Shown in pieces: positions 11,288 to 59,398 of a stretch of 64,000 nt of DNA. Under the pieces are notes generated by a model. That model did no database searches. It was not told the DNA's origin and saw only the letters and a program-made list of their open reading frames with translations. How positions within the stretch are numbered: the stretch's first letter is position 1; the number at the start of each line of letters is the position of its first letter. The translations under genes and the position numbers were made by a program. The stretch comes from Nitrosopumilus sp. (lineage in GTDB: Archaea > Thermoproteota > Nitrososphaeria > Nitrososphaerales > Nitrosopumilaceae). The DNA lies in the NCBI GenBank assembly GCA_965214775.1, contig OZ243974.1, forward strand, positions 2,080,001 through 2,144,000, given 5' to 3'.

Positions 11288-11358
11288 CATAAAGTTGACA
11301 AGAACTGCAACATTAGCTAACTCTGGTACTGTTTCTTAAACTTTGAAACTCACTATAG

Positions 11359-12924
11359 TTGAAACTGTTTCTGACGCTTTCAATATTTTCAGTACTTCTT
11401 CTAGCTAATTCTTTTGCCCAAAATTCGTCTGCAATGACTGATTATGAGGAAATTGGCAAGTGGGGCTCTCTTGGAACCCAGCCGGGAAAATTTGTCAATC
11501 CGCTGCAAATTGCAGTGGGCGAAGATGGCAGCGTCTATGTGAATGATCTGGGAACAAAAAGGGTTCAAAAATTCCAGAGCAGCGGCCATTACGTGCTTGA
11601 CTGGGGTTCTAGCGGAAAGCAATCCGGCGGATTTTACTATCCTGCAGGAATTGCAGTAAGCAGTGACGCTGTATTTGTTGCAGATAGGGACCTTCACAGA
11701 ATTCAAAAATTTAGCCTGGGTGGCGAATTTGTCCTCGAATGGGGACAGAAAGGAGGCTATGAGGGACAACTGTTCTTCCCAAACGACATCGCAATTTACA
11801 ACGATAAACTCTATGTGGTTGACACTGGCAATCAGCGCATTCAGGTATTCTCCGCTGAAGAAGGCCGGTTCCTTTATTCGTTTGGCTCAAGCGGTCTGGG
11901 TGAGGGACGATTTGTTGCACCTGTAGGAATTGCAGTCGATTTGGATGGCAATGTATATGTCACAGACAGAGGAAACAGCAAGATAGAAAAATTCTCTTCT
12001 GACGGCGTTTTTGCAAAGTCCCTTGCATATTATTACCATGAATACGCCTTTTCTCCTGAGGCAATCGCAGTTGATCCTAACGGCGACCTCTTTGTCGTAA
12101 ATTCCGCAAACGGCAGGATTCTGCATTTGTCGCCAGATTCCAGTCTGCTGTTAAGGCCCGTTGAAACGATTGGTCCATACCCTGACTCATTTGTCACTGT
12201 CTCTGACATTGAAATTGGGATCAACGGTGAGTTGTTAATCGTTGATTCCTCGGCAAACAAAATCCTCGTCTTTGAGACAGAATTTTATGAACAGTCCGCA
12301 GACGCAATTCCATATTTTGAACCTGTAATTGAGAGAGAGGTTCTTGATCAAACCAAACCTGATATCGCCGCTCCTGAATCTCTGATTGTTGAGGCAACCG
12401 GCAGGCTGACCAGCGTGGACATTGGAAACGCCACCGCATTTGACGAATACGGAATCAAGGCCATCATCAACAATGCCCCTGAATCGTTCTCCCCGGGAAT
12501 CTCCAATGTCATCTGGGTGGCCTTTGACAATACCGGTCACACATCAAGTGCTTACCAGACAGTAAACGTTGTTGCATGTGGCAAAAATGCTTCTGATTAC
12601 AATATCATTGAGGGAACCGAGTCTGATGACGTCATAGCTGGAACTGATGGCGATGACTTGATCTTTGGACTGTCTGGAAATGACATAATTTCAGGCGGAT
12701 TGGGAAATGACTGCATATATGGCGGTCCTGGAGATGACATTATTTCTGGAAACGGCGGCGATGACACCCTCAAAGGGGATTCTGGCAATGATGTTCTAAA
12801 AGGAGGCCCTGGATCTGATGTGATCTATTCTCATGCCGGCTCTGACGTGCTAAACGGCGGCACCTATCTTGATCGGTGTTATCCATACTCGGTGACTGAT
12901 GTCTTGGTAAACTGTGAAGAATAG
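11359..12924 (+). CDS. Secreted NHL-repeat protein with HYR-like domain and RTX Ca-binding repeats
   Basis: Repeated GQLFFPNDIA/VYVTDRGN NHL blades; C-terminal GGxGxDxx nonapeptides; signal peptide. Confidence 0.9.
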   Translation: MKLFLTLSIFSVLLLANSFAQNSSAMTDYEEIGKWGSLGTQPGKFVNPLQIAVGEDGSVYVNDLGTKRVQKFQSSGHYVLDWGSSGKQSGGFYYPAGIAVSSDAVFVADRDLHRIQKFSLGGEFVLEWGQKGGYEGQLFFPNDIAIYNDKLYVVDTGNQRIQVFSAEEGRFLYSFGSSGLGEGRFVAPVGIAVDLDGNVYVTDRGNSKIEKFSSDGVFAKSLAYYYHEYAFSPEAIAVDPNGDLFVVNSANGRILHLSPDSSLLLRPVETIGPYPDSFVTVSDIEIGINGELLIVDSSANKILVFETEFYEQSADAIPYFEPVIEREVLDQTKPDIAAPESLIVEATGRLTSVDIGNATAFDEYGIKAIINNAPESFSPGISNVIWVAFDNTGHTSSAYQTVNVVACGKNASDYNIIEGTESDDVIAGTDGDDLIFGLSGNDIISGGLGNDCIYGGPGDDIISGNGGDDTLKGDSGNDVLKGGPGSDVIYSHAGSDVLNGGTYLDRCYPYSVTDVLVNCEE

Positions 12925-12939
12925 GCAGGTTGATTGATT

Positions 12940-12947
12940 CTATATAG
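12940..12947. promoter_or_regulatory. CTATATAG palindrome upstream of pstS (candidate Pho box)
   Basis: Same 8-mer at 14864, 29321 and 59391 upstream of other genes. Confidence 0.55.
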
Positions 12948-13020: not shown

Positions 13021-14277
13021 ATGAAAACAAAGATGACATCGTTACTACTGCTGATTGCAACCCTGGTTGCAATAGTACCTCCGTTAAGCGCAAACGCAGA
13101 CTCGATGCCAGATGAACCAATGGATAATCTTGAATACAATCTAACTGGTGCCGGTGCAACATTCCCGTTCCCGCTGATTGATCTGTGGAGAGTTGAATAC
13201 AACAACTTGTACAACAACGTAAATCTGAACTATCAATCAATTGGAAGCGGCGGCGGAATCAAGCAGCACATTGAAAAGACCGTAAATTTTGCAGCCTCCG
13301 ACAAACCGATGAGCGAGTCTGAAAGTGAACTGGCCCCAGGCACACTGCATATTCCAGAATCGATTGGCGGCGTGGTTCTGGTTTACAACGTGCCTGAAGT
13401 TCCAAACAAAGGACTCAAACTGACTGCCGATGCAGTCGCAGGAATCTTTTTGGGAGAAATCACAAAATGGAATGATCCTGCCATTGCGTCAGAGAATCCC
13501 GGCTTGAATCTTCCGGACAAGGACATTGTAACTGCACATAGATCAGATGGCTCTGGAACTACCTTTATCTTCACTGACTATCTGTCAGTCGTTAGCCCTG
13601 CATGGGATGAACAAATTGGTAAGGGCAAATCCGTTCCATGGCCAAGCGGTCTGGCCGCTGCCGGGAACGAAGGAGTCGCAGGCATTGTAAAGTCCACAGA
13701 ATACTCGATTGGATACATTGAACTTGCCTACGCATTCCAGACTGGAATGGCATATGCTTCGGTTCAAAACGCTGACAAGTCTGCATTCGTTGAACCTACT
13801 TTGGAGAGCATCTCTGCTGCTTCAAGTGGCGTTGCAGACTCCCTGCCGGCAGCTGCTGACAGCTGGGTTGGCGTTTCATTGGTAAATGCACCGGGTGCCG
13901 ATTCATACCCTCTTGCAAGCTTTACATACCTCTTGGTGTATGATGATCTAAAGCCGGTAACTGACAACAAAGAACAGGCAAAGGCTGTAATCCACCTGAT
14001 TCATTGGATGATTACTGATGGTCAGGAATTCTCATCAAGCCTGCTCTATGTTCCTCTTGCCGATAGGGTAACTGAACTTGGCAAGGAAGGTCTGGGCCAA
14101 GTAACCTATGGTGGAGAATCCCTTTGGGACTATGAGGCATCTGCAGACTCGGGAAGCCTGGAAATTCCAAAATGGATTAGGGACAATGCAAAGTGGTGGT
14201 CAGAAGGACTGATCTCTGATCAGGACTACGTCAACGGACTGCAATTCCTCATTAAACAAGGAATTCTCAAAGTCTGA
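13021..14277 (+). CDS. pstS: Phosphate ABC transporter substrate-binding protein
   Basis: GAGATFPFP, YQSIGSGGG, HRSDGSGTT motifs; thaumarchaeal IPKWIRDNAKWW tail. Confidence 0.97.
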   Translation: MKTKMTSLLLLIATLVAIVPPLSANADSMPDEPMDNLEYNLTGAGATFPFPLIDLWRVEYNNLYNNVNLNYQSIGSGGGIKQHIEKTVNFAASDKPMSESESELAPGTLHIPESIGGVVLVYNVPEVPNKGLKLTADAVAGIFLGEITKWNDPAIASENPGLNLPDKDIVTAHRSDGSGTTFIFTDYLSVVSPAWDEQIGKGKSVPWPSGLAAAGNEGVAGIVKSTEYSIGYIELAYAFQTGMAYASVQNADKSAFVEPTLESISAASSGVADSLPAAADSWVGVSLVNAPGADSYPLASFTYLLVYDDLKPVTDNKEQAKAVIHLIHWMITDGQEFSSSLLYVPLADRVTELGKEGLGQVTYGGESLWDYEASADSGSLEIPKWIRDNAKWWSEGLISDQDYVNGLQFLIKQGILKV

Positions 14278-14303: not shown

Positions 14304-14328
14304 TGATGGGATCCTGTCCCAAACTCCA

Positions 14329-14629
14329 CAGAAAGCTGGTTCGAAATTAGCAAACTCTGATTATTTGCGAACGAATTTGCATAGAACGGCTCAAAACACC
14401 AGCAAAATACAAACTATCTGTGAAATTACATGAAAAATTCGCACGGTTTCTGATTTCGGATCACCTCTCAGAAATCTGGTTTGAAATCAGCAAATCCTGA
14501 TCATGCATAGACGAGCTTACATCGAATAGATCAATTCTTACAGGCCACAAGTTATCTGCGAAATTGCCTGACAAATGTACGAGAAAATCCTGGCACTTGC
14601 GCGGCTTCTAATTTCAAGTCAATTTTCTG
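14329..14629 (+). mobile_element. Two tandem degenerate copies of MITE-like family F (about 14329-14468, 14469-14629)
   Basis: Both start CAGAAA.CTGGTT.GAAAT.AGCA; second ends TTCTAATTTCAAGTCAATTTTCTG (imperfect inverted repeat); homologous to 28026, 43887 and 46505 copies. Confidence 0.65.
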
Positions 14630-14863
14630 CCTTGGTCTTGTCTGTATGGCGCGCATCGTGACGCATTGGAGGGTTTGGTACCCGTATAGTGATGACTGCA
14701 AGTCTTTGATCATCAAAAGGTGCATTTCTGGGAAATTCACACCCATGTGCGCTCAAACTTTTAATCATCGTTATGGGTGGTCACATACGGGACAAGGCCT
14801 AATTACGTTTTATGCGGTTATTCTCATTTCTTGTTGTTTCGTGATTTTAGAATTGCCGCAATA

Positions 14864-14871
14864 CTATATAG
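14864..14871. promoter_or_regulatory. CTATATAG palindrome upstream of the triple-repeat gene
   Basis: Identical to the motif upstream of pstS, pstC and sixA. Confidence 0.45.
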
Positions 14872-14955
14872 CATTACGATAACTAACTATCTCAATATTC
14901 GGTTCGTAGAGAATTAGGATCAAGATTATATCGTGTTTTGAAAAACTGAATTTCA

Positions 14956-16560
14956 ATGACGACAAAAAACGTGATAACGACGACAACGACAACAACATTC
15001 AGCCTAGTTGCAATTCTTGCAATTGGAGCAATTGCCGAATTTAACAGCGCATTTGCAGAAGAAGAATCAACTACAAGATACAAGATGGCAGATGATATTG
15101 AGGCAATTCTGACATTTACCTTTAGAGATGGCGTAGAAGTACACAAATTCCCGGTTTTCAACATGGGTGAAAATTTTGTTGCTAACAGCGGAATCTCATT
15201 TCAAGTAGAAGGTATTCTGAATGAAGCCCCTCATTTGCACAAGGCACTAGACTATGCGTACCAATACCGGCTTCAAACTTCCGGCGGTTCTAGTTTCGAA
15301 TACGACTATAGGTATTTTGAAGTAGACGTCGACTTTGCCAGACATGGCAAGGTTATCAAAACCCTCAACTATCATGATTGTGGCATTGCCGACTATGAGG
15401 TAAAGACACTTAGAGACGACCAAGAAAGTTACATGTCCTCTAAGACTGGATTTGCAATAGTTGATCACATTGATTTCAATTGTGGTGGGCTAGACGGTAT
15501 TGATCCTGACGTATCTAATGTAAGGGCAACTGAAAGAACATACACTGACTTTGGCTCGCTTGACTACAAATTTGCAAATGATGTAAGGACAATCGTCACT
15601 TTTGATTTTGACGAGGGCGTAGAAAGAATCGAGTTCCCGTTCTTTGAGACAACCTCTGGATTTTCAGAAGATTTTGACAATGTTGCTGCTCAATTTGAGG
15701 TAGAAAGTGTTGTGGCAGATTATCCGTTGCTTTATGCAGCAATTGACAAGTCAAGGCAGGTTTCTGGAATTGCTACTGTATTCAACAATTACTTTGATGC
15801 ATTTGTTGAATTTACCAAAGACGGCGAGGTTCTTCGTGCCATTAACTATAGAGACTGTATCGTAGGTTCTGCTGAAATCAATACCTGGCAAGACAAGGAA
15901 GACGGCTATACTGGAAAATCTGGATTTGCAATGGTCAATCAAATCGGATTTGACTGTGCTGGACTGACTCCGGTCAATGATAATTTGGAATCATTGTATG
16001 GTGATGCGCCGATTTGGAAAACCAGACACGTATCCAACACTCTTCCTGCACATGAATTTCCAACTTCTGGAAACGTTCGTGCCATAGCTACATTTACCTT
16101 TGAAGACGGACAGGAATTTGTTGACTTTCCATTCTATGATCAAGGAGATGTTTTGGCAAAATCTAATCCGACATTCGTACTTGAGGGAATAGTAGGCGAC
16201 ACTCCTCTGCTCTATGATGTAATTGACGAAAATCTCAGCATCCAACGCCAGTCTGGAACAAACCCCGTATTGCAGTTATTCCAAGTTGACATTGAACTGG
16301 TTTCAGATGGAAGACATGTTCGTACGTTCAACTATAGCGATTGCAGGGTGACTGATTATGTTGTCGAGTCAGACCGCGATAAGGAAGACGGTTACTTTAA
16401 GGGATTTGCCTTGGCAAACATCATTGATTTTGAATGTTTGGGGTATCATCCAAACAATCCTGCCTATGATGCGATGTTTGAGGTGGAAAAAGCAAAGAAC
16501 ATCAAATCAAGTGACCTGAGAAACACCCAAGATTGGGGGGAAGACTTCTACGTACGGTAG
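14956..16560 (+). CDS. Secreted protein with three tandem ~140-aa repeats (Hcp/tail-tube-like by eye)
   Basis: Signal peptide ending AFA-E; three repeats with TFxFxDG, FP.F, P.L..., NYxDC, GFA...IxFxCxG; T-tract follows stop. Confidence 0.85.
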   Translation: MTTKNVITTTTTTTFSLVAILAIGAIAEFNSAFAEEESTTRYKMADDIEAILTFTFRDGVEVHKFPVFNMGENFVANSGISFQVEGILNEAPHLHKALDYAYQYRLQTSGGSSFEYDYRYFEVDVDFARHGKVIKTLNYHDCGIADYEVKTLRDDQESYMSSKTGFAIVDHIDFNCGGLDGIDPDVSNVRATERTYTDFGSLDYKFANDVRTIVTFDFDEGVERIEFPFFETTSGFSEDFDNVAAQFEVESVVADYPLLYAAIDKSRQVSGIATVFNNYFDAFVEFTKDGEVLRAINYRDCIVGSAEINTWQDKEDGYTGKSGFAMVNQIGFDCAGLTPVNDNLESLYGDAPIWKTRHVSNTLPAHEFPTSGNVRAIATFTFEDGQEFVDFPFYDQGDVLAKSNPTFVLEGIVGDTPLLYDVIDENLSIQRQSGTNPVLQLFQVDIELVSDGRHVRTFNYSDCRVTDYVVESDRDKEDGYFKGFALANIIDFECLGYHPNNPAYDAMFEVEKAKNIKSSDLRNTQDWGEDFYVR

Positions 16561-16867: not shown

Positions 16868-18002
16868 TAGTATCTACGTCAGCCATTTGTTCATCTTTAC
16901 CACCTTTATCTCGCCCCTGCGCGTCATACTGCGCAGTGATCTCTGCATCTCCTTGACGGTCTTGTAAAGGCAGTTTGAAGTCGCCTTTTTGAACCCGCGC
17001 CACTGCCCCTCCGAGTTGTTAAGCTCCGGCGCGTACGGCGGCAGGTACTTTAGCACCACGTCCCCGTTCCACTTGGCCATCTTTCTATTGAGTTCTGCTG
17101 ACTTGTGGTACGATGCGTTGTCGACAAACAACAACACCTTGCCGTACTTGCGGCGCAGTGTCCTGAGAAACTTGTAGAACGTCCCCGTGTTGGCCTTTTC
17201 GTAAAAGCGATAGTCAAACCTGTTTCTTGAGAGGGCCCCTATGACATAGAACCGCTTCCTGGACAGGCTGACGGGCGTATAGACCGGCTCTCCTACGGGG
17301 TACCAGCTGTTCTTGACGTTCCATCCCAGTATGAACATGGACTCGTCGCCTATCATTACCGTGTACCCCTTTTTTGAATAGTACTTTGCGCTCTGCCTAG
17401 CTTTTTTTTTGAACTCCTTTTTCTCGGATTCTGAGGCTGATTTTGGGTGTTTTGGCCTGGGCTTTCTGCATGAGAAGCCGATTCTGTGCAGCAGGTCGTA
17501 CATGCTCGTTTCTGCATACGTGATGCCGAACTTCTTTTTGACGTGGGCAATGACCAGCGGCCCTGTCCATGTTGTGGCCTTAAAGCCGCAGTTGTCCGGG
17601 CCCTTGATCAGGTCTGCGCGCAGCCGTTCAAGCTGTTTCTTGTCGAGCCTGCACGGGGCGCCATGCTTTATGTCAAACCTGCCCTCCAGGCCATGCTTGT
17701 GCGCACGCACCAGCCAGTATCGTACGGTTCCATACGGCCTGCTCAGCTTCTCGGCAATATCATATATGCTCGCGCCGCACTTTCTCATGTGGTATGCAAG
17801 GAGCCGGATTGCCGCCTTGGCGTCCTTCTCGGACTTGTGCATCCTAAAAAGCTCGTCCTTGCTTGCTATCCCGTACAGGAACGCTGTTCCCGTCGGTAAT
17901 TCCTTCTTTCCTTTCATGTGTATATATGGGACTAATAGCTCTTAGATCCTTTGGTTGAAAAAAATTGTCCTTTTTGTGATCAATTGGTAGCCGAGGATAC
18001 TA
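16868..18002 (-). mobile_element. IS630-family element A, copy 1 (1135 bp)
   Basis: Imperfect TIRs TAGTATCTACGTCAGCCATTTG / CAATTGGTAGCCGAGGATACTA; near-identical inverted copy at 24307-25440; CG on both flanks. Confidence 0.95.
16874..17917 (-). CDS. IS630-family transposase (single frame)
   Basis: GDES...VDNASYH...LPPYAPELNNSE DDE motifs; N-terminal HTH. Confidence 0.96.
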   Translation of the reverse strand: MKGKKELPTGTAFLYGIASKDELFRMHKSEKDAKAAIRLLAYHMRKCGASIYDIAEKLSRPYGTVRYWLVRAHKHGLEGRFDIKHGAPCRLDKKQLERLRADLIKGPDNCGFKATTWTGPLVIAHVKKKFGITYAETSMYDLLHRIGFSCRKPRPKHPKSASESEKKEFKKKARQSAKYYSKKGYTVMIGDESMFILGWNVKNSWYPVGEPVYTPVSLSRKRFYVIGALSRNRFDYRFYEKANTGTFYKFLRTLRRKYGKVLLFVDNASYHKSAELNRKMAKWNGDVVLKYLPPYAPELNNSEGQWRGFKKATSNCLYKTVKEMQRSLRSMTRRGEIKVVKMNKWLT

Positions 18003-18151: not shown

Positions 18152-19636
18152 ATGAAGACGACTATCGTCGTCGTCCCGTGCATGTTGCTTGGACTATGCA
18201 TTATTGCACTGTATGTGGCAGCTGTCGCCCCCGACGCGCCAAACGCACATGCCGCACCCGCATCCCCTGCCGAGCAGCTGAGATCCGGGGTGGCACCAGA
18301 CCAGGTCAGGTGCGGCGAGGGCAAGGTACTGGTGATCCGCCCCGGCGATAGGCCCGCATGCGTGAGCCCGTCCACGGCAGACCGGCTGGGACTCGAGCCG
18401 GTCGTACGCGCAGTGCCTGACAGGCCACAGAAAGTCGTCATGCAGGAGGACGGCCGCACACCAGATGATGCCGCCAACAACATAAACAATGCAGAAGACG
18501 GCAGGGTTCCGCGTCACTTTGTCACGTTCTTTCGCGGCGAGCCCATCGACGTGACTGTCATGGTGAGCCCCGACCGAACCGGATACTGGAGGGATGGAAC
18601 TACAAAGGCGGAGCTTGACGAGTTGGTAAGCAAGTTTGCAGAGCACCTGACCGGCCACTCCATAGTCAGGGATACCGTCACAGTCAGGACCCCGGAGGTG
18701 CGATCGTACGTGCCTGCAGAGTACGAGGAACCTGACGAGGACTCTGGCGCAAAGGCATACAACTTCCGCCATGGAACCGGCTCTGGCTGGTTCATATCCG
18801 ACAATACGTATGGGGGCAACTTTATAGACCACCAGGGGTGGGATGAGGGTTCAGTAAGGGTAATCAGGCATGACTATGTCGGGTTTCTGTCGGAGTTTAT
18901 GGACGCCATGGGCTTTGAGGGCTGGGGCTTTTACTGCCCACATGATGAATGCAAACACCAATTTGGCCATGATCACTTTGTGTACACGCTGATCAACGGG
19001 AAGACCTCCGATGAGAGAAGGTCCCATGCAGAAATACTGGACGAACACGGGCCGCATATGGGAACCATCGAATCATATCTTTCACATCTAAATATGGCGA
19101 GAGGACGTGTCAGTTCAGAATACAGTGATGAACACATGGAAACCAAACAAAGACTGGCGGACACGTACCCCACCGCAGAGGAGATCATCAACAACTATCC
19201 AAAGTACAAGGAGCACATGAGGGAGTACTTGGAACCGCGCACAACTCAGTACAAGGCCGAATACAACGGCACGGGCAGGATAGACTTCAAATTCGACTCC
19301 GGTTCCACCGTAATGCGTTTTAACGGATGGTCTGACTATCCCGTACCGGATCCCGTCCTGAACAGGACCGAGGCCATAAAGAGGGCGCTGGAGTTTGCTC
19401 GTACCGACGAATTCATGCTGGACAGGTGCGTCATCGACGTACCGGATAGATCCGAGGAGGACAGGCCGCGGTACATCTATCTCACACAAGTGGCATCTAC
19501 CCCTTTCTGGAATGTGGACGGGATCTCATGTAACAGCGGCCACGGTGTGCTGATATACGTGGATGCCCTAGACGGTAAGACCGTCTGGTTCAAAGGTGAT
19601 GGCCAAAGCACATCCAGCAAGAAAGCAAGGCAGTAG
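18152..19636 (+). CDS. Secreted/anchored hypothetical protein with thaumarchaeal SPxxQ...PACV surface motif
   Basis: Hydrophobic N-terminus; SPAEQLRSGV...CGEGKVLVIRPGDRPACVSPSTADRL; stop TAG overlaps the IS end. Confidence 0.8.
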   Translation: MKTTIVVVPCMLLGLCIIALYVAAVAPDAPNAHAAPASPAEQLRSGVAPDQVRCGEGKVLVIRPGDRPACVSPSTADRLGLEPVVRAVPDRPQKVVMQEDGRTPDDAANNINNAEDGRVPRHFVTFFRGEPIDVTVMVSPDRTGYWRDGTTKAELDELVSKFAEHLTGHSIVRDTVTVRTPEVRSYVPAEYEEPDEDSGAKAYNFRHGTGSGWFISDNTYGGNFIDHQGWDEGSVRVIRHDYVGFLSEFMDAMGFEGWGFYCPHDECKHQFGHDHFVYTLINGKTSDERRSHAEILDEHGPHMGTIESYLSHLNMARGRVSSEYSDEHMETKQRLADTYPTAEEIINNYPKYKEHMREYLEPRTTQYKAEYNGTGRIDFKFDSGSTVMRFNGWSDYPVPDPVLNRTEAIKRALEFARTDEFMLDRCVIDVPDRSEEDRPRYIYLTQVASTPFWNVDGISCNSGHGVLIYVDALDGKTVWFKGDGQSTSSKKARQ

Positions 19637-21168
19637 ACTTTATGCGTAATCGGCCCATCTGATCTAAAAATACGACACAATAGATCATTATTTGCACACC
19701 AACAACCCTAAAGATCTGTATGATTCCCTAACTGTATGGGCTCAAATGACAAGACTCTCCAAGCATTTCAAGCGTTACAAGCGCAACACGAGATGCTAGT
19801 CGAGCAACACGAGCAGGTATCCAAGCAAAACAAACAGATGTCCAAGCAAAACGAGCGTATGAGGAAGCAGCTTGCGTTTGAGGACTCGTTGTGGCAGTCC
19901 GAAGAAAACAAGACAAAAAGAGTCGTGCGCGGCGGGACGCCTCTGCGGATGCACGCAATCGAGGTTGCAGACAGCATAATCGGCGATCCGGTGCGCCTTC
20001 GCAACGTCACGGGATGCACAAAGGAGTCATTTGAGATCATACTGGAGCGCTTTACGGAAGAAGTCATGGACGACGAGGACAGACCCCTGTTCTGGGAGGA
20101 CGACGTAAGAGGCGGCGATGCCGGAAACCGGTGCAAGCTGTACATCAGGCACGCGCTGCTTGCAGTACTCATGAGCATAAGGACCAAGGCAACGCAGCAT
20201 CATCTGGCCGCAACGTTTGACGTCGACCAGTCCACAATGTCCAGGTACCTCCGGTACGGTGCCGTGTTACTGCGCCAGATCCTGCCTGCCTCCGAAAAGC
20301 TAACAAGCATCATCTGCAAGACCCCGGCAGGCAAGCTGGAGGAGGTGCTGATCCCAAAAAAGACGCTCCTGATTGACGGCACCCTGACTCCGGTAGACAG
20401 GCCCGGGGACAGGACCGCAAGAAAGACCAGATATTCGGGAAGAAAAAAGCGGCACATGTTCAACACGATAATTACCTCGAACCTGGACGGCCTCATACTG
20501 CACTGCGGCAAGACTGTGGACGGAAGCGTCAACGACAAGGGCGTGATGAACGCAGGGGGCGGCCCGGACTTTGGAAGGCACACCGGATCAATGAGGAATG
20601 CAAAAAACGCAGACGATCCGGAAGAGGCGTTTGTGATTTACAGCGACCTGGGATTTGAGGGCATTCAAAAGATGCTTCCGGGCGCCATACACAGGCAGCC
20701 CCCAAAGAAGCCCAGGGACGGGGATCTTACTGCAACGCAAAAGAGGCGCCGCAAGCAGATAAGCAGGGTTCGCGTCAGGGTGGAGCACCACATAGGGCGG
20801 CTCAAAAGATATGGCATTCTTACCATGCCGTTTGGCGGAACTGCCAAGGATCTCAATTATTTCATGCAGATAATCACGGGTCTTGAGAACCTCAAGACGA
20901 TGTTGAAAAGGAAAAAATACTATGGCCAGCTGCTGCAGCAGCTGCATCTGCTGCCAGACACATGACATACGGCGGTACGGACCGCCATTCTTTCTGACTT
21001 GTCAACGGGGCACATTGCCGTGCTGCATGGTTGCGCACGTTCTTTTGGCGCAACTGGCTTTTACGTGCGTCATGACACGAGATGCATGCGGTAATTTGAT
21101 CCGATCAGCGCATTTGCGTTTGGAAAAGCCTACGGAATTTTTAATCACGGTCGATTACGCATAAAGTC
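19636..21168 (+). mobile_element. IS5-family (ISL2/Harbinger-like) element
   Basis: TIRs GACTTTATGCGTAATCG / CGATTACGCATAAAGTC around the transposase. Confidence 0.9.
19736..20965 (+). CDS. DDE_Tnp_4-type transposase
   Basis: LIDGT...YSGRKKRH...GSVND...DLGFEG...RVRVEHHIGRLK motifs. Confidence 0.93.
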   Translation: MGSNDKTLQAFQALQAQHEMLVEQHEQVSKQNKQMSKQNERMRKQLAFEDSLWQSEENKTKRVVRGGTPLRMHAIEVADSIIGDPVRLRNVTGCTKESFEIILERFTEEVMDDEDRPLFWEDDVRGGDAGNRCKLYIRHALLAVLMSIRTKATQHHLAATFDVDQSTMSRYLRYGAVLLRQILPASEKLTSIICKTPAGKLEEVLIPKKTLLIDGTLTPVDRPGDRTARKTRYSGRKKRHMFNTIITSNLDGLILHCGKTVDGSVNDKGVMNAGGGPDFGRHTGSMRNAKNADDPEEAFVIYSDLGFEGIQKMLPGAIHRQPPKKPRDGDLTATQKRRRKQISRVRVRVEHHIGRLKRYGILTMPFGGTAKDLNYFMQIITGLENLKTMLKRKKYYGQLLQQLHLLPDT

Positions 21169-22119: not shown

Positions 22120-22212
22120 GTACGAGGTCACCTACCCCCATCAGCTAGGCACGGATTAGCGTGCATGATTGTAATTTTCGTGCCTAGATGGTAGGGGGAC
22201 GTGACCACATAC
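22120..22212. mobile_element. MITE family E (93 bp) with 8-bp target duplication GGCGATGA
   Basis: TIRs GTACGAGGTCAC / GTGACCACATAC; duplication at 22112-22119 and 22213-22220; copy at 36034-36126. Confidence 0.92.
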
Positions 22213-24306
22213 GGCGATGATGTGACCATCAGAATCCTAGTTGTAGGCACACCCAGTATTCGAGAAGAGAATGCAAACATATCGTCATTGGCAAGACACA
22301 TTGTGGCAGATGTCAATCGGACATACAGTGAAAACGACCTTCCCATAATGATCGAGCTGGCAGACAACAGTCTTGCGTCCTACACTGAGGCAGACTCCAT
22401 AGACGACGATCTTGAGAATCTGATAGGCGCCACCACGCCAAGTCTGAGAAGGGTGCATACCCTGGCAGAAACCCATGAGGCGGATCTGGTAATAATGCTG
22501 ATCAAGGACACGTTTCGTAATGACACCAGCAACGGTAACAGCTACCCAGATCCTATCAAACACAACATTGCAGCACAATGCGCCAAATCCGGCGAGTTAC
22601 TGGCAAAGGGGACTGGCCGCGCGTTTGCCGTGATGTCGCACCCGTGCGTGATGACCGACTATGCTGCAGTCGCCATAGGGACACTGCAGGGTGCGGCACT
22701 ACATGACATGTCCAACCCAGAATTCAGTTATGGCCGGGGTTATCGCGCCGCTGATTCAAGCCTTCCAAGTACCATTATGGTATCGGGGGATACAGATTGT
22801 GATTCTGACACGACTGACATACAACTATGCGATCGGGAACGAATCTGGTCTGACCCACACCGCTTTTTCTTTGGCACACTGGATCCTGCAGGCACGGTGG
22901 AAAACTGGAACGCCAGGGTGCTTTTTGCAACGGCCCCGCACATCGCCTCGCTGAGAGGGGAGGCCCAGACATATGACTCGGTCATGCCGACTGGAGCCAT
23001 AACGCTTCCGTCATCCATACCCACGAGGGGAACGCTGCCAATCAACGCCACCTTCAGCGAGGACATCCACGAATGGTTCCCGCCGATCATCACCGTTACC
23101 GATGGTGCCACGACGACTGCGGTGGTAATGACGAGGACATCCCCAACCACATACACGTACCCGCACCTGCTTGACGGCGAGCAGGGGAAGGTGCAGCTGC
23201 TGTTTTCAAACGCGCGAGATATATTTGGCAACCCCGTGGTCAAAACTCCCACATCAGGCGGCAGCTTTACTGCAAACGCGGCAGACGCGACGGTGCATCC
23301 CCCGCCCATATCCGGATCCGTCACGCGGGTAAGCGAGGACTTTGAGACCCGCCTGTCCCACTCCCTCTGGCGCCTGCTTGGCGACGGCACGTGGCTCAGG
23401 GTTGTCCCAACCGAGAAGATACCGGACGCAGACATGGCCACAAACCGTGTCCTAGCATCTGATGAATGCGACGACTCGTGCATACTTCTGCTCAATTCAC
23501 CGCTTAACACGGTAGAGCCCCTCACGATATCCTTTGACCGGTATGTGGGAGGGAAGATCGACAGGGACGAGGGGCTGCATGTAGAGTACACCACCGATCG
23601 TGAGACGTGGAACACGCTTGCCTCGTATACCGAAAACAACGGCCACGACACGGGCCGGTGGGAGCGCTCCACAATCAGTCTTACAATACCCGAGAACTGG
23701 GCAAAGCTCCGGTTCCACGCAATGTCCAGCACGCAAGACGAGCCCGTGGAAATCGACAACATCGTAATATCGCCTACCGAGGCGGCCGTGCCCGATATCA
23801 CGTTTAGCTCCTCGCTGAGCAGCGGACGTACCAACATAATCCTGACGCTCTCAAAGAGCACCTCCCACATGTTCTCTGCATCCGACTTTGAGATCAGCCA
23901 CGGGAGGGTATCGTCCATACAAAACATCCAGAACTCACCTGCACGCGTCCTCACACTAAACCAGACAATACCGTATGACACGCCGGTGACAGTCACATAC
24001 GTGGGAGACTCGCTGGATCCGGACATGGATGGTGCCATACTGCACTCTGGCACCTCGTCGGTGGCCGCACCCGTACCGGCCCCTGACATGCCCCCGACCA
24101 TCTCTGCCATACCGGACGTGGAGGTGGTGCAAGGGGAAACTGCCACGAGGCAGGTAACGGCATCGGATCCCGATGGGGATGACATCGTCCTGTCGGTATC
24201 GGAGGGTCCTGACTTTGTCACCATCGCAGATGGAGGCAGCGGTGGCAGCGGCACCATAACGATAAGCCCGACGTCATCCTCGCATGTGGGTGCCTACACG
24301 GTGACG

Positions 24307-25440
24307 TAGTATCCTCGGCTACCAATTGATCACAAAAAGGACAATTTTTTTCAACCAAAGGATCTAAGAGCTATTAGTCCCATATATACACATGAAAGGA
24401 AAGAAGGAATTACCGACGGGAACAGCGTTCCTGTACGGGATAGCAAGCAAGGACGATCTTTTTAGGATGCACAAGTCCGAGAAGGACGCCAAGGCGGCAA
24501 TCCGGCTCCTTGCATACCACATGAGAAAGTGCGGCGCGAGCATATATGATATTGCCGAGAAGCTGAGCAGGCCGTATGGAACCGTACGATACTGGCTGGT
24601 GCGTGCGCACAAGCATGGCCTGGAGGGCAGGTTTGACATAAAGCATGGCGCCCCGTGCAGGCTCGACAAGAAACAGCTTGAACGGCTGCGCGCAGACCTG
24701 ATCAAGGGCCCGGACAACTGCGGCTTTAAGGCCACAACATGGACAGGGCCGCTGGTCATTGCCCACGTCAAAAAGAAGTTCGGCATCACGTATGCAGAAA
24801 CGAGCATGTACGACCTGCTGCACAGAATCGGCTTCTCATGCAGAAAGCCCAGGCCAAAACACCCAAAATCAGCCTCAGAATCCGAGAAAAAGGAGTTCAA
24901 AAAAAAGCTAGGCAGAGCGCAAAGTACTATTCAAAAAAGGGGTACACGGTAATGATAGGCGACGAGTCCATGTTCATACTGGGATGGAACGTCAAGAACA
25001 GCTGGTACCCCGTAGGAGAGCCGGTCTATACGCCCGTCAGCCTGTCTAGGAAGCGGTTCTATGTCATAGGGGCCCTCTCAAGAAACAGGTTTGACTATCG
25101 CTTTTACGAAAAGGCCAACACGGGAACATTCTACAAGTTTCTCAGGACACTGCGCCGCAAGTACGGCAAGGTGTTGTTGTTTGTCGACAACGCATCGTAC
25201 CACAAGTCAGCAGAACTCAATAGAAAGATGGCCAAGTGGAACGGGGACGTGGTGCTAAAGTACCTGCCGCCGTACGCGCCGGAGCTTAACAACTCGGAGG
25301 GGCAGTGGCGCGGGTTCAAAAAGGCGACTTCAAACTGCCTTTACAAGACCGTCAAGGAGATGCAGAGATCACTGCGCAGTATGACGCGCAGGGGCGAGAT
25401 AAAGGTGGTAAAGATGAACAAATGGCTGACGTAGATACTA
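24307..25440 (+). mobile_element. IS630-family element A, copy 2 (1134 bp)
   Basis: Inverted near-identical copy of 16868-18002; CG on both flanks. Confidence 0.95.
24392..25434 (+). CDS. IS630 transposase split into two frames at an A8 run (24899-24906)
   Basis: Same protein as 16874-17917 but one A fewer; needs a -1 frameshift or slippage. Confidence 0.85.
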
Positions 25441-28229: not shown

Positions 28230-29279
28230 TTATTCCTCTGTGATGATGTTTTGGACGTTTTCATCTATGGCCACTTCTGCAATGTCGCTAGAATACTCTG
28301 CAATTCTTCTCAAATCCTCCAAAATGAATCTGATAATTGTCGCATTCTTTTCAGTTTCCCTAACCTTGCTCATGATCTGCTTCTCCTCGTCAATTACCCT
28401 GCCTACCTCTTGGGCTACGCGTTCGCCTTTCTCAAAATCATGTTCCTGCACTGCTGTAACCGACTTTTCAAACACGTCCAGGGATTTTTCGGATAACTTC
28501 TTTATCTTTGCAAAAATCTTTGAATCAATCCTGCCTTCGACAAACTTTGTTCTTTTTGCAATCAATCCTGCATGGTCTGCAATTCTTTCAATCCTGCTTA
28601 CAATTGCCCTATACCCCAAGCAATCTGAGGCCTTTCGCAGTCCCATGTCCTGCAGGATGCCTTGATTCCCTACTGCCAGAACCAAATTCCTTCTCATGTA
28701 TAGCCCAAATCTGTCCACTTCATCGTCCATGTTTACCACGTCATCTGCATGGGACGTGTCTGTTTCTTCGAGGGCCTCTATGGACTCTATTACCATGTTG
28801 TTTGCCATCAGATGCATTCTGTTTAGTGCCGTTTCAAATGATAATTCCGGCAGCCTTGCTAAAATTTGAATGGTCACTGATTCTGAACTAGATTCGACAA
28901 TTTCGGTGCCCATCATTGTGGAACGGACCACTTCTCTGATGCTGCGAGAATGGCCTACATGAATTCTCATTCCCCTGGTCTTGATTTTAATGGTTTTGTA
29001 ACCGGCCAAATACGCCGAGATGACTTTTCGCTTGATGCTCTCTGTGGAGTCTTTCTGGCTGGATAGAATTATTGCAGTCGTCTTTTCAGATTCCAAGGTT
29101 CCTTCCTTTGGAATTAACGTCAATGACTGGTTTGAATTTTTGACAATTGCTACATTGTCTCCTACCTTGATTTTCAGTTCCTCAACCCATCTCTTTGGGA
29201 GGGAGACGATGTATGTAGATCCTCCGCTTAGTTGCATTCGTCGCATCTGCCTTGAGCTCTCTATATCTTCCAATTGCAA
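28230..29279 (-). CDS. Phosphate uptake regulator: AbrB/MazE DNA-binding domain + PhoU domains
   Basis: RRMQLSGGSTYIVSLPKRW AbrB motif; DDEVDRF, IERIADH, LRRIAEY PhoU motifs. Confidence 0.93.
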   Translation of the reverse strand: MQLEDIESSRQMRRMQLSGGSTYIVSLPKRWVEELKIKVGDNVAIVKNSNQSLTLIPKEGTLESEKTTAIILSSQKDSTESIKRKVISAYLAGYKTIKIKTRGMRIHVGHSRSIREVVRSTMMGTEIVESSSESVTIQILARLPELSFETALNRMHLMANNMVIESIEALEETDTSHADDVVNMDDEVDRFGLYMRRNLVLAVGNQGILQDMGLRKASDCLGYRAIVSRIERIADHAGLIAKRTKFVEGRIDSKIFAKIKKLSEKSLDVFEKSVTAVQEHDFEKGERVAQEVGRVIDEEKQIMSKVRETEKNATIIRFILEDLRRIAEYSSDIAEVAIDENVQNIITEE

Positions 29280-29320: not shown

Positions 29321-29328
29321 CTATATAG
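29321..29328. promoter_or_regulatory. CTATATAG palindrome between the divergent regulator and pstC
   Basis: Lies in the 113-bp divergent intergenic region. Confidence 0.55.
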
Positions 29329-29392: not shown

Positions 29393-30370
29393 GTGATCAG
29401 GAACAAGCTAAAACCTGAAAGGCCGGGCCGCCTGCCCATCTCCGACAAGATCTTCAAGGTTGGCGCGACCATTGCAGGTGTCTACGTCCTAGTCATGGTG
29501 GCATTACTGGTCTTCCAGTTGACTTCCGAGTCTTATCCTGTATGGGAGGAGGAGGGTCTGGGATTTATTACCGGTACTGATTGGAATGCCGTAGAGGGCC
29601 GTGAATCCTTTGGCGCACTACCCTACATCCTTGGAACGTTGGTGACAGCCGGTCTTGCAATGGCAATCGGGGTTCCGTTAAGCCTTGGAATTGCAATGTT
29701 TATCTCTGATGCCCCTGCAAAAATCGGGGGCCCCCTTGGGTTTGTTGTGGAGCTGTTGGCAGCAGTTCCAAGCGTCATTTACGGACTCTGGGGTCTGTTT
29801 GTCTTTCGAATCTACTTTAAGGACTGGGTTGAGGAACCCCTTCATGCAGTTTTTGGTGACTCGATCTTTTTATTTTCAGGCACTCCGTTTGGCCTTGACA
29901 TCCTGACTGCAAGCGTAATTCTTGCAATTATGATTATTCCGACGGTTTCTGCCGTTTCTCGTGAAGTGATGAAGGCCGTCCCGCAACAGCAAAAGGAAGC
30001 CGCCTACATGTTGGGTGCAACAAAATGGGAAATGTTCAAACTGGCAGTTTTTCCGTATTCAAAAACCGGGTTGATAGGCGCATCAATTCTGGGACTTGGA
30101 AGGGCAGTAGGCGAAACCATGGCTGTAACCATGTTGATTGGAAACGCAACTGGGATGGCGGCCATTCCCTCGTCATTCTTCAAGCCAAGCCAGACAATGT
30201 CAAGCATCATTGCAAATGAATTTGTCGAGGCATCCCCTGCCTCGATACATCTGCCGGCACTCATCGGCGTTGCACTGGTGTTGCTGTTGATTGCCATAGC
30301 CATCAATATCGTGGCACACGTTCTGGTAACTAGAATGCTCAAGGTAAAGGAGGGCGCAATCAACAATTGA
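29393..30370 (+). CDS. pstC: Phosphate ABC transporter permease
   Basis: ELLAAVPSVIYGLWG; GRAVGETMAV. Confidence 0.96.
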   Translation: MIRNKLKPERPGRLPISDKIFKVGATIAGVYVLVMVALLVFQLTSESYPVWEEEGLGFITGTDWNAVEGRESFGALPYILGTLVTAGLAMAIGVPLSLGIAMFISDAPAKIGGPLGFVVELLAAVPSVIYGLWGLFVFRIYFKDWVEEPLHAVFGDSIFLFSGTPFGLDILTASVILAIMIIPTVSAVSREVMKAVPQQQKEAAYMLGATKWEMFKLAVFPYSKTGLIGASILGLGRAVGETMAVTMLIGNATGMAAIPSSFFKPSQTMSSIIANEFVEASPASIHLPALIGVALVLLLIAIAINIVAHVLVTRMLKVKEGAINN

Positions 30371-31299
30371 GCACATCTAATGAAAGAAGGCAGGAATACC
30401 GCGCACTGTTCAAACAGAACGTCAAAAAACGCCTTCTGGTGGACAAGGCAGTCAGGATAATCGTCTTTTCTTGCGTTGTGATTGCAATTATTCCGCTAGG
30501 GAGTATCCTGCTTGAAGTCTTCAAGAACGGGGCTGCCGCAATCAGTTATGAGTTCCTGACTGAGACTCCCGGCGCAATTGGCTCTGGCCAAGGCGGAATC
30601 GGACCTGCAATTCAAGGCACCCTGATTATTATCGGTCTGTCCAGTCTGATTGGAGTCCCGATCGGCGTGATGTCCGGCGTCTTCCTGTCTGAATATGGCG
30701 ACAACAGGCTTGCCCGAAGCATCCGATTCTTCAACGATGTCTTTATGGAGTTCCCGTCAATCGTGCTAGGCATATTTGCATTTCTGGTGATTGTTCTTGT
30801 TCTGGGCCACTTTTCTGTCTGGGCAGGCGCATTTGCATTGTCCCTGATCATGTTTCCAATCGTTGCCAGAACCACTGAGGAATCCCTCAAAATGGTGCCT
30901 GTTACTTATCGTGAAGCTGGAACCGCCCTGGGATTGAAAAAATGGGTAATTACGTTCAGAATTGTGATCTCCGCTGCCAAAAACGGGATGATTACCGGCG
31001 TACTGCTCTCTGTCTCAAGAATTGGCGGGGAGACTGCCCCGTTAATCATGACCATTCTTGGAAGCAGTCAATTCTTTAGCAGCATGGATGTTCCGATGGA
31101 TGCCCTGCCTTTGAGAATCTGGCGGCTCTCTCTTCTTCCATATGACAGTGCCCAGCTTCAGGGCTGGGGTGCTGCCTTGGTGCTGATTATCATTATTCTT
31201 GGAATCAATCTAGGCGTGAGATACTTTTTTGCAAACAGAAAAAACAAGAGTAATATTTTCGGACAGTTAATTAAGAAAGGAGATCGAGCTAAAAATTGA
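30367..31299 (+). CDS. pstA: Phosphate ABC transporter permease
   Basis: PSIVLGIF; RIGGETAPL. Confidence 0.96.
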
Positions 31300-32147
31300 C
31301 TGCATTGACCGTTAGTAGACCATCTGGCGCTGAAACAACACAATCAACTCCCGCCTCTGCTTCTTCTCCTTCTGTGGCCCCTAGCACTGAAAAATACAAG
31401 ATGATTGCAGAAAATGTGACGATCAGCTATGACGGAATTGCGGCAGTCAAGGACGTCACAATGAAGTTCAAGGAACGTTCTGTCACTGCCTTGATTGGCC
31501 CTTCTGGTTGCGGAAAAACCACCTTCTTGCGCTGCCTTAACAGGATGCATGATATGACAAAAAACGCAACTGTTGCCGGAAGAGTAAAGATTGACGAAAT
31601 TGATCTTTATGACAAGTCAATTGATCCCATTTATCACAGAAGAAAAGTCGGCATGGTCTTCCAAAAACCAAACCCATTCCCAACAATGTCGATCTATGAC
31701 AATGTTACAGCTGGTCTAAAACTGAACGGTGTAAGGGACAGAAGGATTCTTGATGAGATTGTAGAGGACTCCCTAAGGATGGCATATCTTTGGGACGAGG
31801 TAAAAAATGATCTTAAAAAGTCTGCAATTGAACTTTCTGGCGGCCAGCAGCAAAGACTGTGCATTGCACGTGCGCTTGCCATTCAGCCTGAAGTCCTGCT
31901 GATGGACGAACCGGCATCTGCATTGGATCCAATTGCTACGCAAAAAATTGAGGAAACAATTACCGAACTAAAAAAGGAATATACCATCATTATTGTTACA
32001 CACAACATGCAACAGGCAGTCCGTGTCTCTGATTATACCGGATTCATGTATCTGGGAGACTTGATTGAGTTTAGGGAGACAAGGAAGCTCTTCACAGATC
32101 CCCAAAATGAGCTTACAGCAAAATATGTCCAGGGTCAATTTGGATAA
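31296..32147 (+). CDS. pstB: Phosphate ABC transporter ATPase
   Basis: [38 protein letters not shown]. Confidence 0.97.
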
Positions 32148-32149
32148 TA

Positions 32150-32812
32150 ATGGCCAGACTAATAGATCCATCCCTGCAAAAACTGTCTTTTATAATGTCT
32201 GAGATGGGTGACATGGTAATTGAGTCAATCTCATTGGCAATAGAGTCGTACTTGGATGGCAAGAACACAAAACTAAAGGTTCTTGAGCTGTCTGACGCAA
32301 TCCGCTTGAAATACTTTGAGGTTGAGGATTTGACCTTTGATATGCTTCTAAAGTATCAACCGGTGGCCGATGACTTTAGACTGATTCGTTCATCAACTGA
32401 AATCTCCTATGCGTTTTCACGCTTTGGCAGATATGCTTATGACATCACTCTGGTCCGCGATCTGTTTGGTGACGTGACAGAATGCAAGAATGCGTCCCTG
32501 ATCCAGTCCTCAAAAAAAGTGAAACACATGATAAAAGAGGCCGTCCTGTCTTTTGCCGAGCTTGATATCCGAAAGGCAGCAAGGATTCAGGAGGACGAAA
32601 AGGAGATTGACAAGATTTACCGGGACAGGATTCCGAAACTCATCAATTCTGAAAACACTCGTTGCGCACTGGCCGAGGCCCTCTTGCTGCGATATCTTGA
32701 GCGCATCGGAGATCATGCTGTCTTCATGAGTGATGCCATCAACTACATAGTCACGGGAAAGCACAGGCCGTCTGAGGCCAGAATCGCCTCCCATACCAAA
32801 CAACTGCCTTAA
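32150..32812 (+). CDS. phoU: PhoU-family protein
   Basis: YQPVADDFR; LERIGDHA; follows pstB. Confidence 0.92.
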   Translation: MARLIDPSLQKLSFIMSEMGDMVIESISLAIESYLDGKNTKLKVLELSDAIRLKYFEVEDLTFDMLLKYQPVADDFRLIRSSTEISYAFSRFGRYAYDITLVRDLFGDVTECKNASLIQSSKKVKHMIKEAVLSFAELDIRKAARIQEDEKEIDKIYRDRIPKLINSENTRCALAEALLLRYLERIGDHAVFMSDAINYIVTGKHRPSEARIASHTKQLP

Positions 32813-59390: not shown

Positions 59391-59398
59391 CTATATAG
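59391..59398. promoter_or_regulatory. CTATATAG palindrome upstream of sixA-ppx
   Basis: About 54 bp before the probable GTG start. Confidence 0.5.

Follow-up and report, generated by a model that had tools for sequence, protein, structure and literature searches.

What does a protein composed of three phage tail-tube-like domains do beside the phosphate-uptake genes of an archaeon? The question is raised by a stretch of 64,000 nucleotides (nt) from Nitrosopumilus sp. (GenBank assembly GCA_965214775.1, contig OZ243974.1, positions 2,080,001 to 2,144,000; hereafter, the window), in which a gene downstream of pstS, here termed the tube-fold gene, encodes a protein of 534 amino acids (aa) with three internal repeats. 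To our knowledge, the tail-tube/Hcp fold is otherwise known only from machines that are assembled in the cytoplasm, namely, phage tails, tailocins, extracellular contractile injection systems (eCIS), type VI secretion systems (T6SS), and gene transfer agents. The protein described here carries this fold together with a putative export signal and cysteine pairs, has no partner machinery, and is tied to the genes of phosphate uptake. We regard it as a member of a real, conserved, and undescribed family that puts a known fold to an unexpected, non-viral use. The explanation that best accounts for the findings as a whole is a Pho-regulated, exported ring of six domains that assists phosphate acquisition; we hold it tentatively, at slightly less than an even chance.

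Fold of the three domains

The open reading frame (ORF) is as first annotated and codes for 534 aa from its ATG start (Table 1). A motif scan of the protein places F.(V/L)E...P.L at residues 82, 247, and 407, NYxDC at residues 138, 297, and 459, and I/VxFxCxG at residues 172, 330, and 490, and there are exactly six cysteines (142, 176, 301, 334, 463, and 494), which bears out the motifs and the two cysteines per repeat that had been read from the translation. The three repeats share 32 to 35% identity over 142 to 145 aa (BLASTP E values of 7e-25 to 2e-28), a similarity that at the sequence level is far beyond chance. All six cysteines are invariant across 52 aligned homologues of the three-domain protein, and both cysteines of the one-domain forms are invariant across 56 sequences. 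An AlphaFold2 model computed from the 52-sequence alignment has a predicted local distance difference test (pLDDT) value of 77.6 and a predicted template modeling (pTM) score of 0.77. In the predicted secondary structure, every repeat runs through four strands, a helix, another strand, a long hairpin, and a final strand, which matches the order that was first sketched.

The N terminus contains K4, hydrophobic residues at positions 15 to 27, and A-F-A|E at residues 32 to 35. “NAFAEE” following the hydrophobic stretch is conserved in the family consensus (52 homologues), and residues 1 to 40 of the model have pLDDT values below 50, with a helix at residues 14 to 25. Read by eye, this region is a putative Sec signal peptide with an A-x-A cleavage site. 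In the C-terminal tail, D520 and T524 are invariant, and L521, W527, and F531 are conserved in at least 90% of the 52 homologues; a comparable “SS.D....W” tail is present in one-domain forms. The mature protein is very acidic (pI 4.35; 89 D+E versus 41 K+R), like the other exported proteins of the locus.

Each of the three domains is predicted, with very little room for doubt, to adopt the Hcp/phage tail-tube fold. The first-pass annotation had made this call by eye, and structure searches with AlphaFold models returned that fold only. When the 534-aa model was searched against the PDB with Foldseek, 11 matches were obtained at E ≤ 1e-3, 10 of which are tail tube, hub, VgrG, or baseplate chains, and the Foldseek probability is up to 1.00 for Hcp5 and for the Afp and PVC tube proteins. 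VIA re-alignment of the same model gave 70 chains with Z ≥ 8, and among the matches listed, 50 of 50 are tube or Hcp proteins. The best matches of domain 2 are 9qgl_5A (PVC) and 6rao_F (Afp), with a Z score of 11.4 and root mean square deviation (RMSD) values of 3.0 to 3.1 Å over 125 residues; further matches of the model are 6j0n_n (Z of 11.3) and, for domain 2, Hcp1 (6bdc, Z of 10.7; 8z7k_B, Z of 10.6). A second, independent model was obtained for a one-domain orthologue from another genus (locus L082, 241 aa; pLDDT of 76.7) and aligned, without Foldseek, to all 48,161 PDB representative chains. Its 50 listed matches are likewise all of tube or Hcp fold (50/50); two of these are Hcp1 fusion constructs, of which the Hcp1 part is matched. 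The best is 6j0n_n (Z of 13.2, 137 residues, RMSD of 4.5 Å), Hcp1 8z7k_A aligns over 121 residues with an RMSD of 2.9 Å, and the Hcp matches have Z scores of 13.2 (8z7k_A), 12.9, and 12.2. A structure search of BFVD returned 125 viral matches at E ≤ 1e-3; those that carry a name are tail tube proteins, including proteins of bacterial and haloarchaeal viruses (Halogranum tailed virus 1).

What speaks against this assignment is that no sequence model of any tube family reaches its threshold. In Pfam (searched at E ≤ 0.1), the 534-aa protein has no match but a sub-threshold one to MfA4_C (E of 0.091); a search of NCBIfam gave no match, a sequence profile search of the PDB gave a best E value of only 0.89, and a PHROG search for the family returned nothing above noise. 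Among 56 one-domain members, none matches a Pfam tube family at E ≤ 1, PF05638 included. A faint sequence-level lead is found in the ESM Atlas, where a cluster carries PF06841 at 0.87, and TIGR02241 matches the six-domain relative P0248 with an E value of 3.9e-5 and 23.5 bits, below its cutoff of 62.4. By those families' own criteria, the protein lies outside PF05638 and PF06841; judging from the models, it would work like, and probably descends from, a tube protein.

Comparison with known tube proteins brings out what is particular to this one. Hcp (PF05638) has, as modeled, the same domain fold and size as the domains described here; it is reported to assemble into hexameric rings and to serve as a carrier of cargo. 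Hcp is released by way of the T6SS, whereas the present protein has a signal-like N terminus and cysteine pairs; it also differs from Hcp in having three domains per chain, an archaeal host, a phosphate locus, no match to PF05638, and no T6SS or sheath genes. Tube proteins of the gp19/PVC/Afp type (PF06841, TIGR02241) provide the best structural matches but no profile above threshold. They are assembled in the cytoplasm, unlike a protein with a putative export signal, and the tube-fold gene has no sheath, baseplate, spike, or tape measure gene around it. We know of no natural tube-fold chain with three or six domains elsewhere. T5 pb6, the P74-26 tube protein, and E217 gp41 (a gp27-like hub) resemble the present protein in that tube-fold domains are fused in one chain; in the available portions of the reports, such two-domain chains form trimers and hence contribute six domains per ring (PMC5717097, PMC10034513, PMC10329688). 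With three domains, by contrast, a dimer would be needed, relatives have one or six domains, and the protein is no part of a virion.

Phosphate genes and a shared promoter box

ORFs were called in 80 related loci and in the window (81 loci in total), clustered, and named with Pfam. The common order upstream comprises genes for a PRC-barrel protein, an ABC ATPase, an ABC-2 permease, and an NHL/RTX protein, followed by pstS (in some loci) and the tube-fold gene. Downstream, about 20 loci continue with phoU-abrB (on the opposite strand), pstC, pstA, pstB, and phoU, and about 29 loci continue with phoU_div (DUF47), a PHO4/Pit transporter gene, sbtA, and a PII gene. A phosphate gene lies within 3 ORFs of the tube-fold gene in 51 of the 81 loci; eight loci, which hold a paralogue that is more distant, adjoin topoisomerase IB, and about a dozen loci are found in varied contexts. 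One-domain orthologues of other genera occupy the same pst slot in 6 of 16 loci, and in two of these six (L085 and L091), which have undergone local inversions or swaps, the tube-fold gene is still beside pstS. The linkage to pst that was suspected from the window is therefore conserved across genera and across one- and three-domain forms. In relatives, phoU-abrB is the gene directly after the tube-fold gene; in the window, synteny with the relative L002 resumes past an 11.6-kb insertion between the two.

The ABC ATPase, ABC-2 permease, and NHL/RTX genes (window 9486-12924) are the most constant upstream neighbors. The NHL/RTX gene (11359..12924), which encodes a secreted NHL β-propeller with RTX calcium-binding repeats, lies within two ORFs upstream of the tube-fold gene in 41 of the 81 loci.

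The CTATATAG sequence upstream of the tube-fold gene had been taken as a hint of phosphate-starvation control, and this hint has gained substance, since a conserved box recurs in the promoters of pstS, the tube-fold gene, phoU-abrB/pstC, and phoU_div-pit. The element common to these promoters is a palindromic (T)TCTATATAG(A). There are 129 CTATATAG sites in the 1.14 Mb of the 81 loci, and 119 of them are located within 300 nt upstream of six gene classes: the tube-fold gene (44 sites, mode -91/-92), phoU_div (30 sites, -62), pstS (20 sites, -81), phoU-abrB (18 sites, -47/-48), pstC/A (4 sites), and c28 (3 sites). Of the other 10 sites, two fall within ORFs, five have no start nearby, and three are upstream of other genes. 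The spacing is narrow: of the 44 tube-gene orthologues that carry the box, 33 have it at -90 to -92, and of the 20 pstS genes with a box, 18 have it at -81. Where enough flank was present, the box was found before 20 of 21 pstS genes and 19 of 19 phoU-abrB genes; counted within 250 nt upstream, it precedes 137 of 212 phosphate or tube-fold genes versus 11 of 967 other ORFs. Of 75 three-domain genes with sufficient flank, 48 carry it (41 phosphate linked and 7 in the same orthologous slot without phosphate neighbors), and among one-domain genes it is present in 6 of 6 that are pst linked versus 0 of 10 unlinked paralogues. In several genomes (loci L009 to L011, L020, L022, and L033), pstS and the tube-fold gene are separated by an oppositely oriented ORF of about 110 aa that has no Pfam match (cluster c28), in some cases with the box upstream.

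The promoter around the box of the tube-fold gene is conserved with the relatives L002 and L003. Orthologue proteins are only 45 to 85% identical, yet their aligned upstream regions have a common pattern, TCTATATAG..TACGA..ACTATCTA..GTTCTA..TAGAGAAT..GCTTATAG, in which TCTATATAG is at -91/-92 and the TATA-like GCTTATAG is at about -33. In the window, a TATA-like element, ATTATAT, is found at 14925-14931 (-31 to -25 from the tube-gene ATG). This promoter-proximal region may serve as a TATA box or operator. CTATATAG itself was considered as the TATA box of the tube-fold gene and rejected, because it lies about 60 nt upstream of this separate TATA-like element.

At the scale of whole genomes, 19 of 54 distinct TCTATATAG sites in five complete genomes fall inside a pst/pit locus of 17 kb or less. 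Five of the 11 sites in the source genome precede pstS (-81), the tube-fold gene (-92), phoU-abrB/pstC (-49/-72), a second phoU-abrB gene (-30), and a histidine-phosphatase gene (-61); of the other six, five fall within long ORFs and one in an unassigned spacer. The second phoU-abrB paralogue (878075-879152 of the same genome, L108) is divergent from a PUA/TGT_C2 gene. The TTCTATATAGA box of the histidine phosphatase (window 59391-59955) is 61 nt before the likely GTG start (59452) of a His_Phos_1 gene (E of 1e-13), and this histidine-phosphatase-superfamily gene may also belong to the phosphate regulon.

Because the box is confined mostly to the promoters of phosphate genes and the tube-fold gene, it appears to mark a small phosphate regulon in which the tube-fold gene is included; membership of this gene in a Pho-type regulon of the Nitrosopumilaceae is, in our judgment, probable. 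The PhoU-AbrB proteins contain a DNA-binding AbrB/MazE domain, and the promoters of their own genes have the box; they are candidates for binding it. The NHL/RTX and ABC-2 genes were also considered as members of the regulon, but they have no box.

Several observations weigh against a phosphate role. The TCTATATAG totals in the five genomes are no higher than those of a reversed-pattern control, and the 11 sites observed in the source genome compare with 11.5 expected; the box is not overrepresented genome-wide, so its meaning rests on where it lies. Paralogues with neither a box nor phosphate neighbors account for 20 of the 75 three-domain genes, and 10 of the 16 one-domain genes are outside the pst locus and have no box, indicating that the fold family as such is not phosphate specific. 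In a sample of 151 genomes of the family Nitrosopumilaceae, the tube-fold gene occurs without pstS (E ≤ 1e-20) in 25 of 78 genomes and pstS occurs without the gene in 53 of 106, and the gene is retained after the loss of both pst and pit in several loci (L030, L060, and L079). Furthermore, since every locus belongs to a single family, some of the synteny is due to inheritance alone.

The uncoupled presence of the two genes in this sample led us to reject the idea that the protein is an obligatory Pst subunit. The tube-fold gene is, rather, a faithful neighbor of pstS: both are present in 53 of the 151 genomes, and in at least 45 of these 53 they lie within 3 kb of each other, 245 to 2710 nt apart. 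(The gene/pstS tallies include the unpublished genomes G429, G440, and G449.)

The genomes with only one of the two genes, the persistence of the tube-fold gene after pst/pit loss, and the origin of the data from a single family would all be expected if the protein were a general envelope component of a Nitrosopumilaceae subclade with no role in phosphate, the gene order being inherited and the box being a shared promoter element; that the ABC-2 and NHL/RTX genes are even more constant neighbors would fit as well. However, the box is almost confined to phosphate genes, is placed at gene-specific fixed distances in four promoters, and also marks the second phoU-abrB gene and the histidine phosphatase in the source genome, whereas the NHL/RTX and ABC-2 genes are without it; moreover, pstS adjacency survives local inversions and swaps. 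On these grounds, we consider a phosphate-independent envelope component unlikely. A further rival is an envelope change under phosphate stress.

Domain number, proposed ring geometry, and possible role

Domains were counted as cysteine pairs in 268 family proteins, of which 129 have three domains, 93 have one, and 4 have six. A further 36 proteins, short pieces of 234 aa or less, have none. Five proteins have two domains and one has five, and all six are truncated; the former are assigned as such because the three-domain profile match runs to their own first or last residue, and the latter is because its start falls inside a domain. Complete proteins with 2, 4, or 5 domains were not found among the 268. 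Six domains are reached in two ways, as 3 + 3 in P0121 and as 5 + WING-49 + 1 in P0199, P0243, and P0248, and a genomic ORF of 1222 aa (locus L104, 6625-10290) has six domains of the latter type. A 771-aa ORF with four domains shares part of its span with a two-domain, 441-aa ORF read in a different frame, and a 630-aa ORF has three. The WING-49 six-domain subfamily occurs only in Nitrosopumilaceae (12 of 401 genomes of a phylum sample), and three-domain (630 aa) and one-domain (236 to 254 aa) versions of this divergent subfamily exist. The numbers 1, 3, and 6 all divide six, which is what a six-domain ring would select for; the relation is suggestive and no proof.

A geometric hint comes from the models. 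The pTM of the three-domain model points to a fixed arrangement of the domains relative to one another. Domains 2 and 3 together superpose on E217 gp41 (8eon_E; 185 residues, RMSD of 3.9 Å, Z of 8.6) and on its Pa193 homologue (9b45_d; 183 residues, RMSD of 3.4 Å, Z of 8.6), and domains 1 and 2 likewise fit hub-like chains from phage 7-7-1 and HFTV1 (9rku_Af, Z of 7.5; 9h4p_BD, Z of 7.4), the alignments covering model residues 46..334 for domains 1 and 2. E217 gp41 is, in the available part of its description, a trimeric, tail-tube-related cap/hub protein (PMC10329688). The first-pass annotation proposed that a dimer builds a pseudo-hexameric ring or a stackable tube. With the domain series and these superpositions as indirect support, a ring of six domains, formed as a dimer of the three-domain chain, seems to us to have a little under an even prospect of being correct. 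The superpositions are single-domain or partial two-domain ones in which ring closure is unseen, and the two-domain tube protein of P74-26 (8ed0_A) aligns over one domain only, both of which count against the ring. Prediction of a two-copy complex (residues 41-506) gave a median score of 0.17, with the mark at 0.42, which speaks neither for nor against binding.

The same domain counts could have arisen in a Pho-regulated, exported protein that forms no ring and consists of monomeric β-sandwich binding modules in a string. Such modules might bind to the S-layer, to a surface glycan, or to a phosphorus source, whether mineral or organic, and an accident of duplication would then account for the 1/3/6 series, with triplication giving three domains and doubling giving six, as in P0121. 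The acidity shared with the other exported proteins of the locus suits this alternative, as does the fusion of one-domain members to unrelated regions (P0154, 464 aa, with a hydrophobic C-terminal end; P0255, 354 aa), a habit common among binding modules. It is harder to reconcile with the fact that every structural neighbor among the matches listed forms a ring or tube, that six domains are reached by two routes, that the complete proteins skip 2, 4, and 5 domains, and that the three domains are predicted to be fixed relative to one another, two of them superposing on a pseudo-hexameric hub. Binding modules in a string therefore appear to us to be on the unlikely side.

The mechanism that we tentatively favor, the exported six-domain ring, would work as follows. 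The box would be the operator of a Pho-type regulon, probably bound by PhoU-AbrB regulators, and under phosphate scarcity the protein would be produced alongside the Pst and Pit systems. Sec export would be followed by disulfide formation and then by assembly into six-domain rings, as a dimer of the three-domain chain, a hexamer of the one-domain orthologues, or a monomer of the six-domain relatives. Located between the membrane and the S-layer, the ring would be an accessory of phosphate acquisition, either as a conduit or collecting ring by which phosphate reaches PstS or Pit behind a cation-attracting S-layer or, alternatively, as a docking ring for PstS, which has a “WW..G.I.D” extension. 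The conduit role by itself has, in our estimate, only a small chance of being correct, and the pore proposed in the first-pass annotation is conjectural. PhoE and OprP, phosphate-starvation-inducible outer-membrane porins of Gram-negative bacteria that form membrane β-barrel trimers, may offer a functional analogy as pst-co-regulated envelope proteins that aid the passage of phosphate; their fold is entirely different, and archaea have no outer membrane. The most specific version of the mechanism, a starvation-controlled, Sec-exported tube-fold ring that passes phosphate by the S-layer in the manner of PhoE/OprP, with the domains per chain tuned to six, is decidedly unlikely in our view.

The setting for such a role is the S-layer of N. 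maritimus, which is strongly negative and has pores of about 5 Å that are read as cation channels (PMC11153153); the words “anion” and “phosphate” do not occur in the available text of that paper. There, a wide ring or a short tube might offer phosphate a route or a place to collect. The locus of the tube-fold gene often carries the bicarbonate transporter gene sbtA as well, whose product handles another anion. Counting against the conduit are the composition of the mature protein, which, acidic as it is, gives no hint of phosphate binding, the persistence of the gene in genomes that lack pstS, and the paralogues without phosphate linkage.

The protein is a candidate for a part in anion uptake behind a strongly negative S-layer in ammonia-oxidizing archaea, hosts that are among the ocean's most abundant microbial groups. 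The 1/3/6 domain series offers a natural test of how chain fusion and ring symmetry co-evolve. The candidate Pho box, TTCTATATAGAA, with its small regulon (pstS, the tube-fold gene, phoU-abrB/pstCAB, phoU_div-pit, and, here, the histidine phosphatase), provides a handle for experiments and for the reading of metatranscriptomes.

Family distribution and other features of the window

No member of the family was found outside Nitrosopumilaceae. When 5.8 billion proteins were searched from word seeds, 7999 candidates were scored, and 557 of them proved to be homologues at E ≤ 1e-3; every named one is a “hypothetical protein” from Nitrosopumilus, Nitrosarchaeum, Nitrosopumilaceae, or Nitrososphaeria. 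With HMMER, run exhaustively against 1.84 billion representatives, the yield at E ≤ 1e-3 was just 200 matches, which include secreted one-domain proteins (about 200 to 250 aa), three-domain proteins of roughly 530 aa, and a divergent subfamily (“LESLPSKDK” type) that contains very long proteins. In the phylum sample of 401 genomes, the family profile is present in 35, all Nitrosopumilaceae; besides the source genome, 34 of 56 genomes of that family are positive, compared with 0 of 345 from all other families. Within the sample of 151 Nitrosopumilaceae genomes, 78 have the family (a tally that includes the unpublished genome G429), and they belong to 12 of 24 genera. The source genome, which consists of one contig of 2.83 Mb and is 99.9% complete, has the tube-fold gene as a single copy.

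Given its fold, the gene could be a relic or weapon of virus-host conflict, that is, the tube gene of a provirus or tailocin or an exported decoy against viral tails. The known occurrences of the fold, which are tails and injection systems, would favor such an origin, as would the tube protein of Halogranum tailed virus 1 among the BFVD matches and the sub-threshold TIGR02241 (phage tail region protein) in a six-domain relative. The absence of sheath, baseplate, and T6SS partners, first noticed in the window, extends to the whole genome: Phage_sheath_1 (PF04984), Baseplate_J (PF04865), Phage_T4_gp19 (PF06841), and T6SS_HCP (PF05638, E ≤ 0.01) each gave 0 matches, and no tail or injection gene cluster was found around the tube-fold gene in the 81 loci. 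A scan of 2.9 million viral contigs with the family motifs gave 127 pattern matches, none of which encodes a relative, and the PHROG search gave no match. In addition, the tube-fold gene keeps a stable chromosomal slot across genera, its product has a putative signal peptide and disulfide cysteines, which are absent from cytoplasmically assembled tails, and the mobile elements of the window belong to an insertion that relatives lack. Taken together, these points make a virus-conflict origin highly improbable. The first-pass annotation had called the protein domesticated, a word that implies a viral origin; the sole sequence link to viral proteins that was found is the sub-threshold TIGR02241 match in the six-domain relative.

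A literature search, which largely did not extend to subscription journals, found no published description of the family or the box. In its available portion, the report of Qin et al. (2020) covers pst, phoU, and pit in these archaea, does not mention the tube-fold gene, and calls phosphorus use in ammonia-oxidizing archaea poorly characterized (PMC7490402).

Table 1. Positions of the tube-fold gene, its parts, and the associated phosphate genes and boxes in the window (gene ends of pstC, pstA, pstB, and phoU, 29393..32800, are approximate)
Feature	Position	Strand	Basis
CTATATAG box, 81 nt before pstS start codon (genome position 2092940)	12940..12947	.	Genome scan
pstS, phosphate ABC transporter substrate-binding protein	13021..14277	+	TIGR00975, E 2e-101; PBP_like_2
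CTATATAG box, 92 nt before tube-gene ATG; candidate Pho operator/upstream activating site	14864..14871	.	
Conserved promoter-proximal region, TCTA/TAGA-type blocks	14872..14955	+	Shared with orthologues
Three-domain tail-tube-fold gene (P0001)	14956..16560	+	534 aa, ATG start
Signal-peptide-like N terminus, residues 1-34, A-F-A|E	14956..15057	+	Read from sequence
Predicted tube-fold domain 1 (~residues 44-182; Cys142, Cys176)	15085..15501	+	Repeat alignment, model strands/helix
Predicted tube-fold domain 2 (~residues 205-342; Cys301, Cys334)	15568..15981	+	Best structural matches
Predicted tube-fold domain 3 (~residues 370-500; Cys463, Cys494)	16063..16455	+	Repeat alignment
Conserved C-terminal tail SS.DLRNT..W..FYV	16456..16557	+	Low confidence, pLDDT ~50
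phoU-abrB type regulator, AbrB/MazE and PhoU domains	28230..29279	-	PF04014, PF01895
CTATATAG box, divergent phoU-abrB/pstC promoter, -49 and -72	29321..29328	.	
pstC, pstA, pstB, phoU	~29393-30370, 30367-31296, 31386-32144, 32150-32800	+	tblastn of L002 neighbors; BPD_transp_1, ABC_tran, PhoU

The insertion between the tube-fold gene and phoU-abrB (16.6-28.2 kb, about 11.6 kb) has a G+C content of about 53%, versus 41 to 47% in the flanks, and is absent from the closest relatives, L002 and L003. It contains an IS630-like DDE_3 transposase gene (16874..17917, minus strand) with relatives at ~24739-25434 and ~26094-26996, an IS5-like DDE_Tnp_4 gene at 19736..20965, a gene for a 494-aa secreted-looking WING-49 protein (18152..19636), and a 703-aa ORF without a known family (22201..24309).

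Between pstS and the tube-fold gene, the window has a spacer of about 680 bp, whereas that of the closest relatives measures about 190 bp. The additional ~490 bp (14313-14805) lies upstream of the conserved promoter and contains two look-alike 30-mers recognized by eye (~14337 and ~14476); a repeat search of the spacer found nothing. This segment may represent a small mobile element, intact or in remnant form.

The “WW..G.I.D” extension at the C terminus of PstS (14160-14274) ends in “KWIRDNAKWWSEGLISDQDYVNGLQFLIKQGILKV”, and the one-domain member P0209 ends in the similar “WVKQAAEWLETGKISMQEYQNLLRYILANKIY”. This C-terminal module, common to exported proteins of these archaea, matched no library model and may be an anchoring or docking element.

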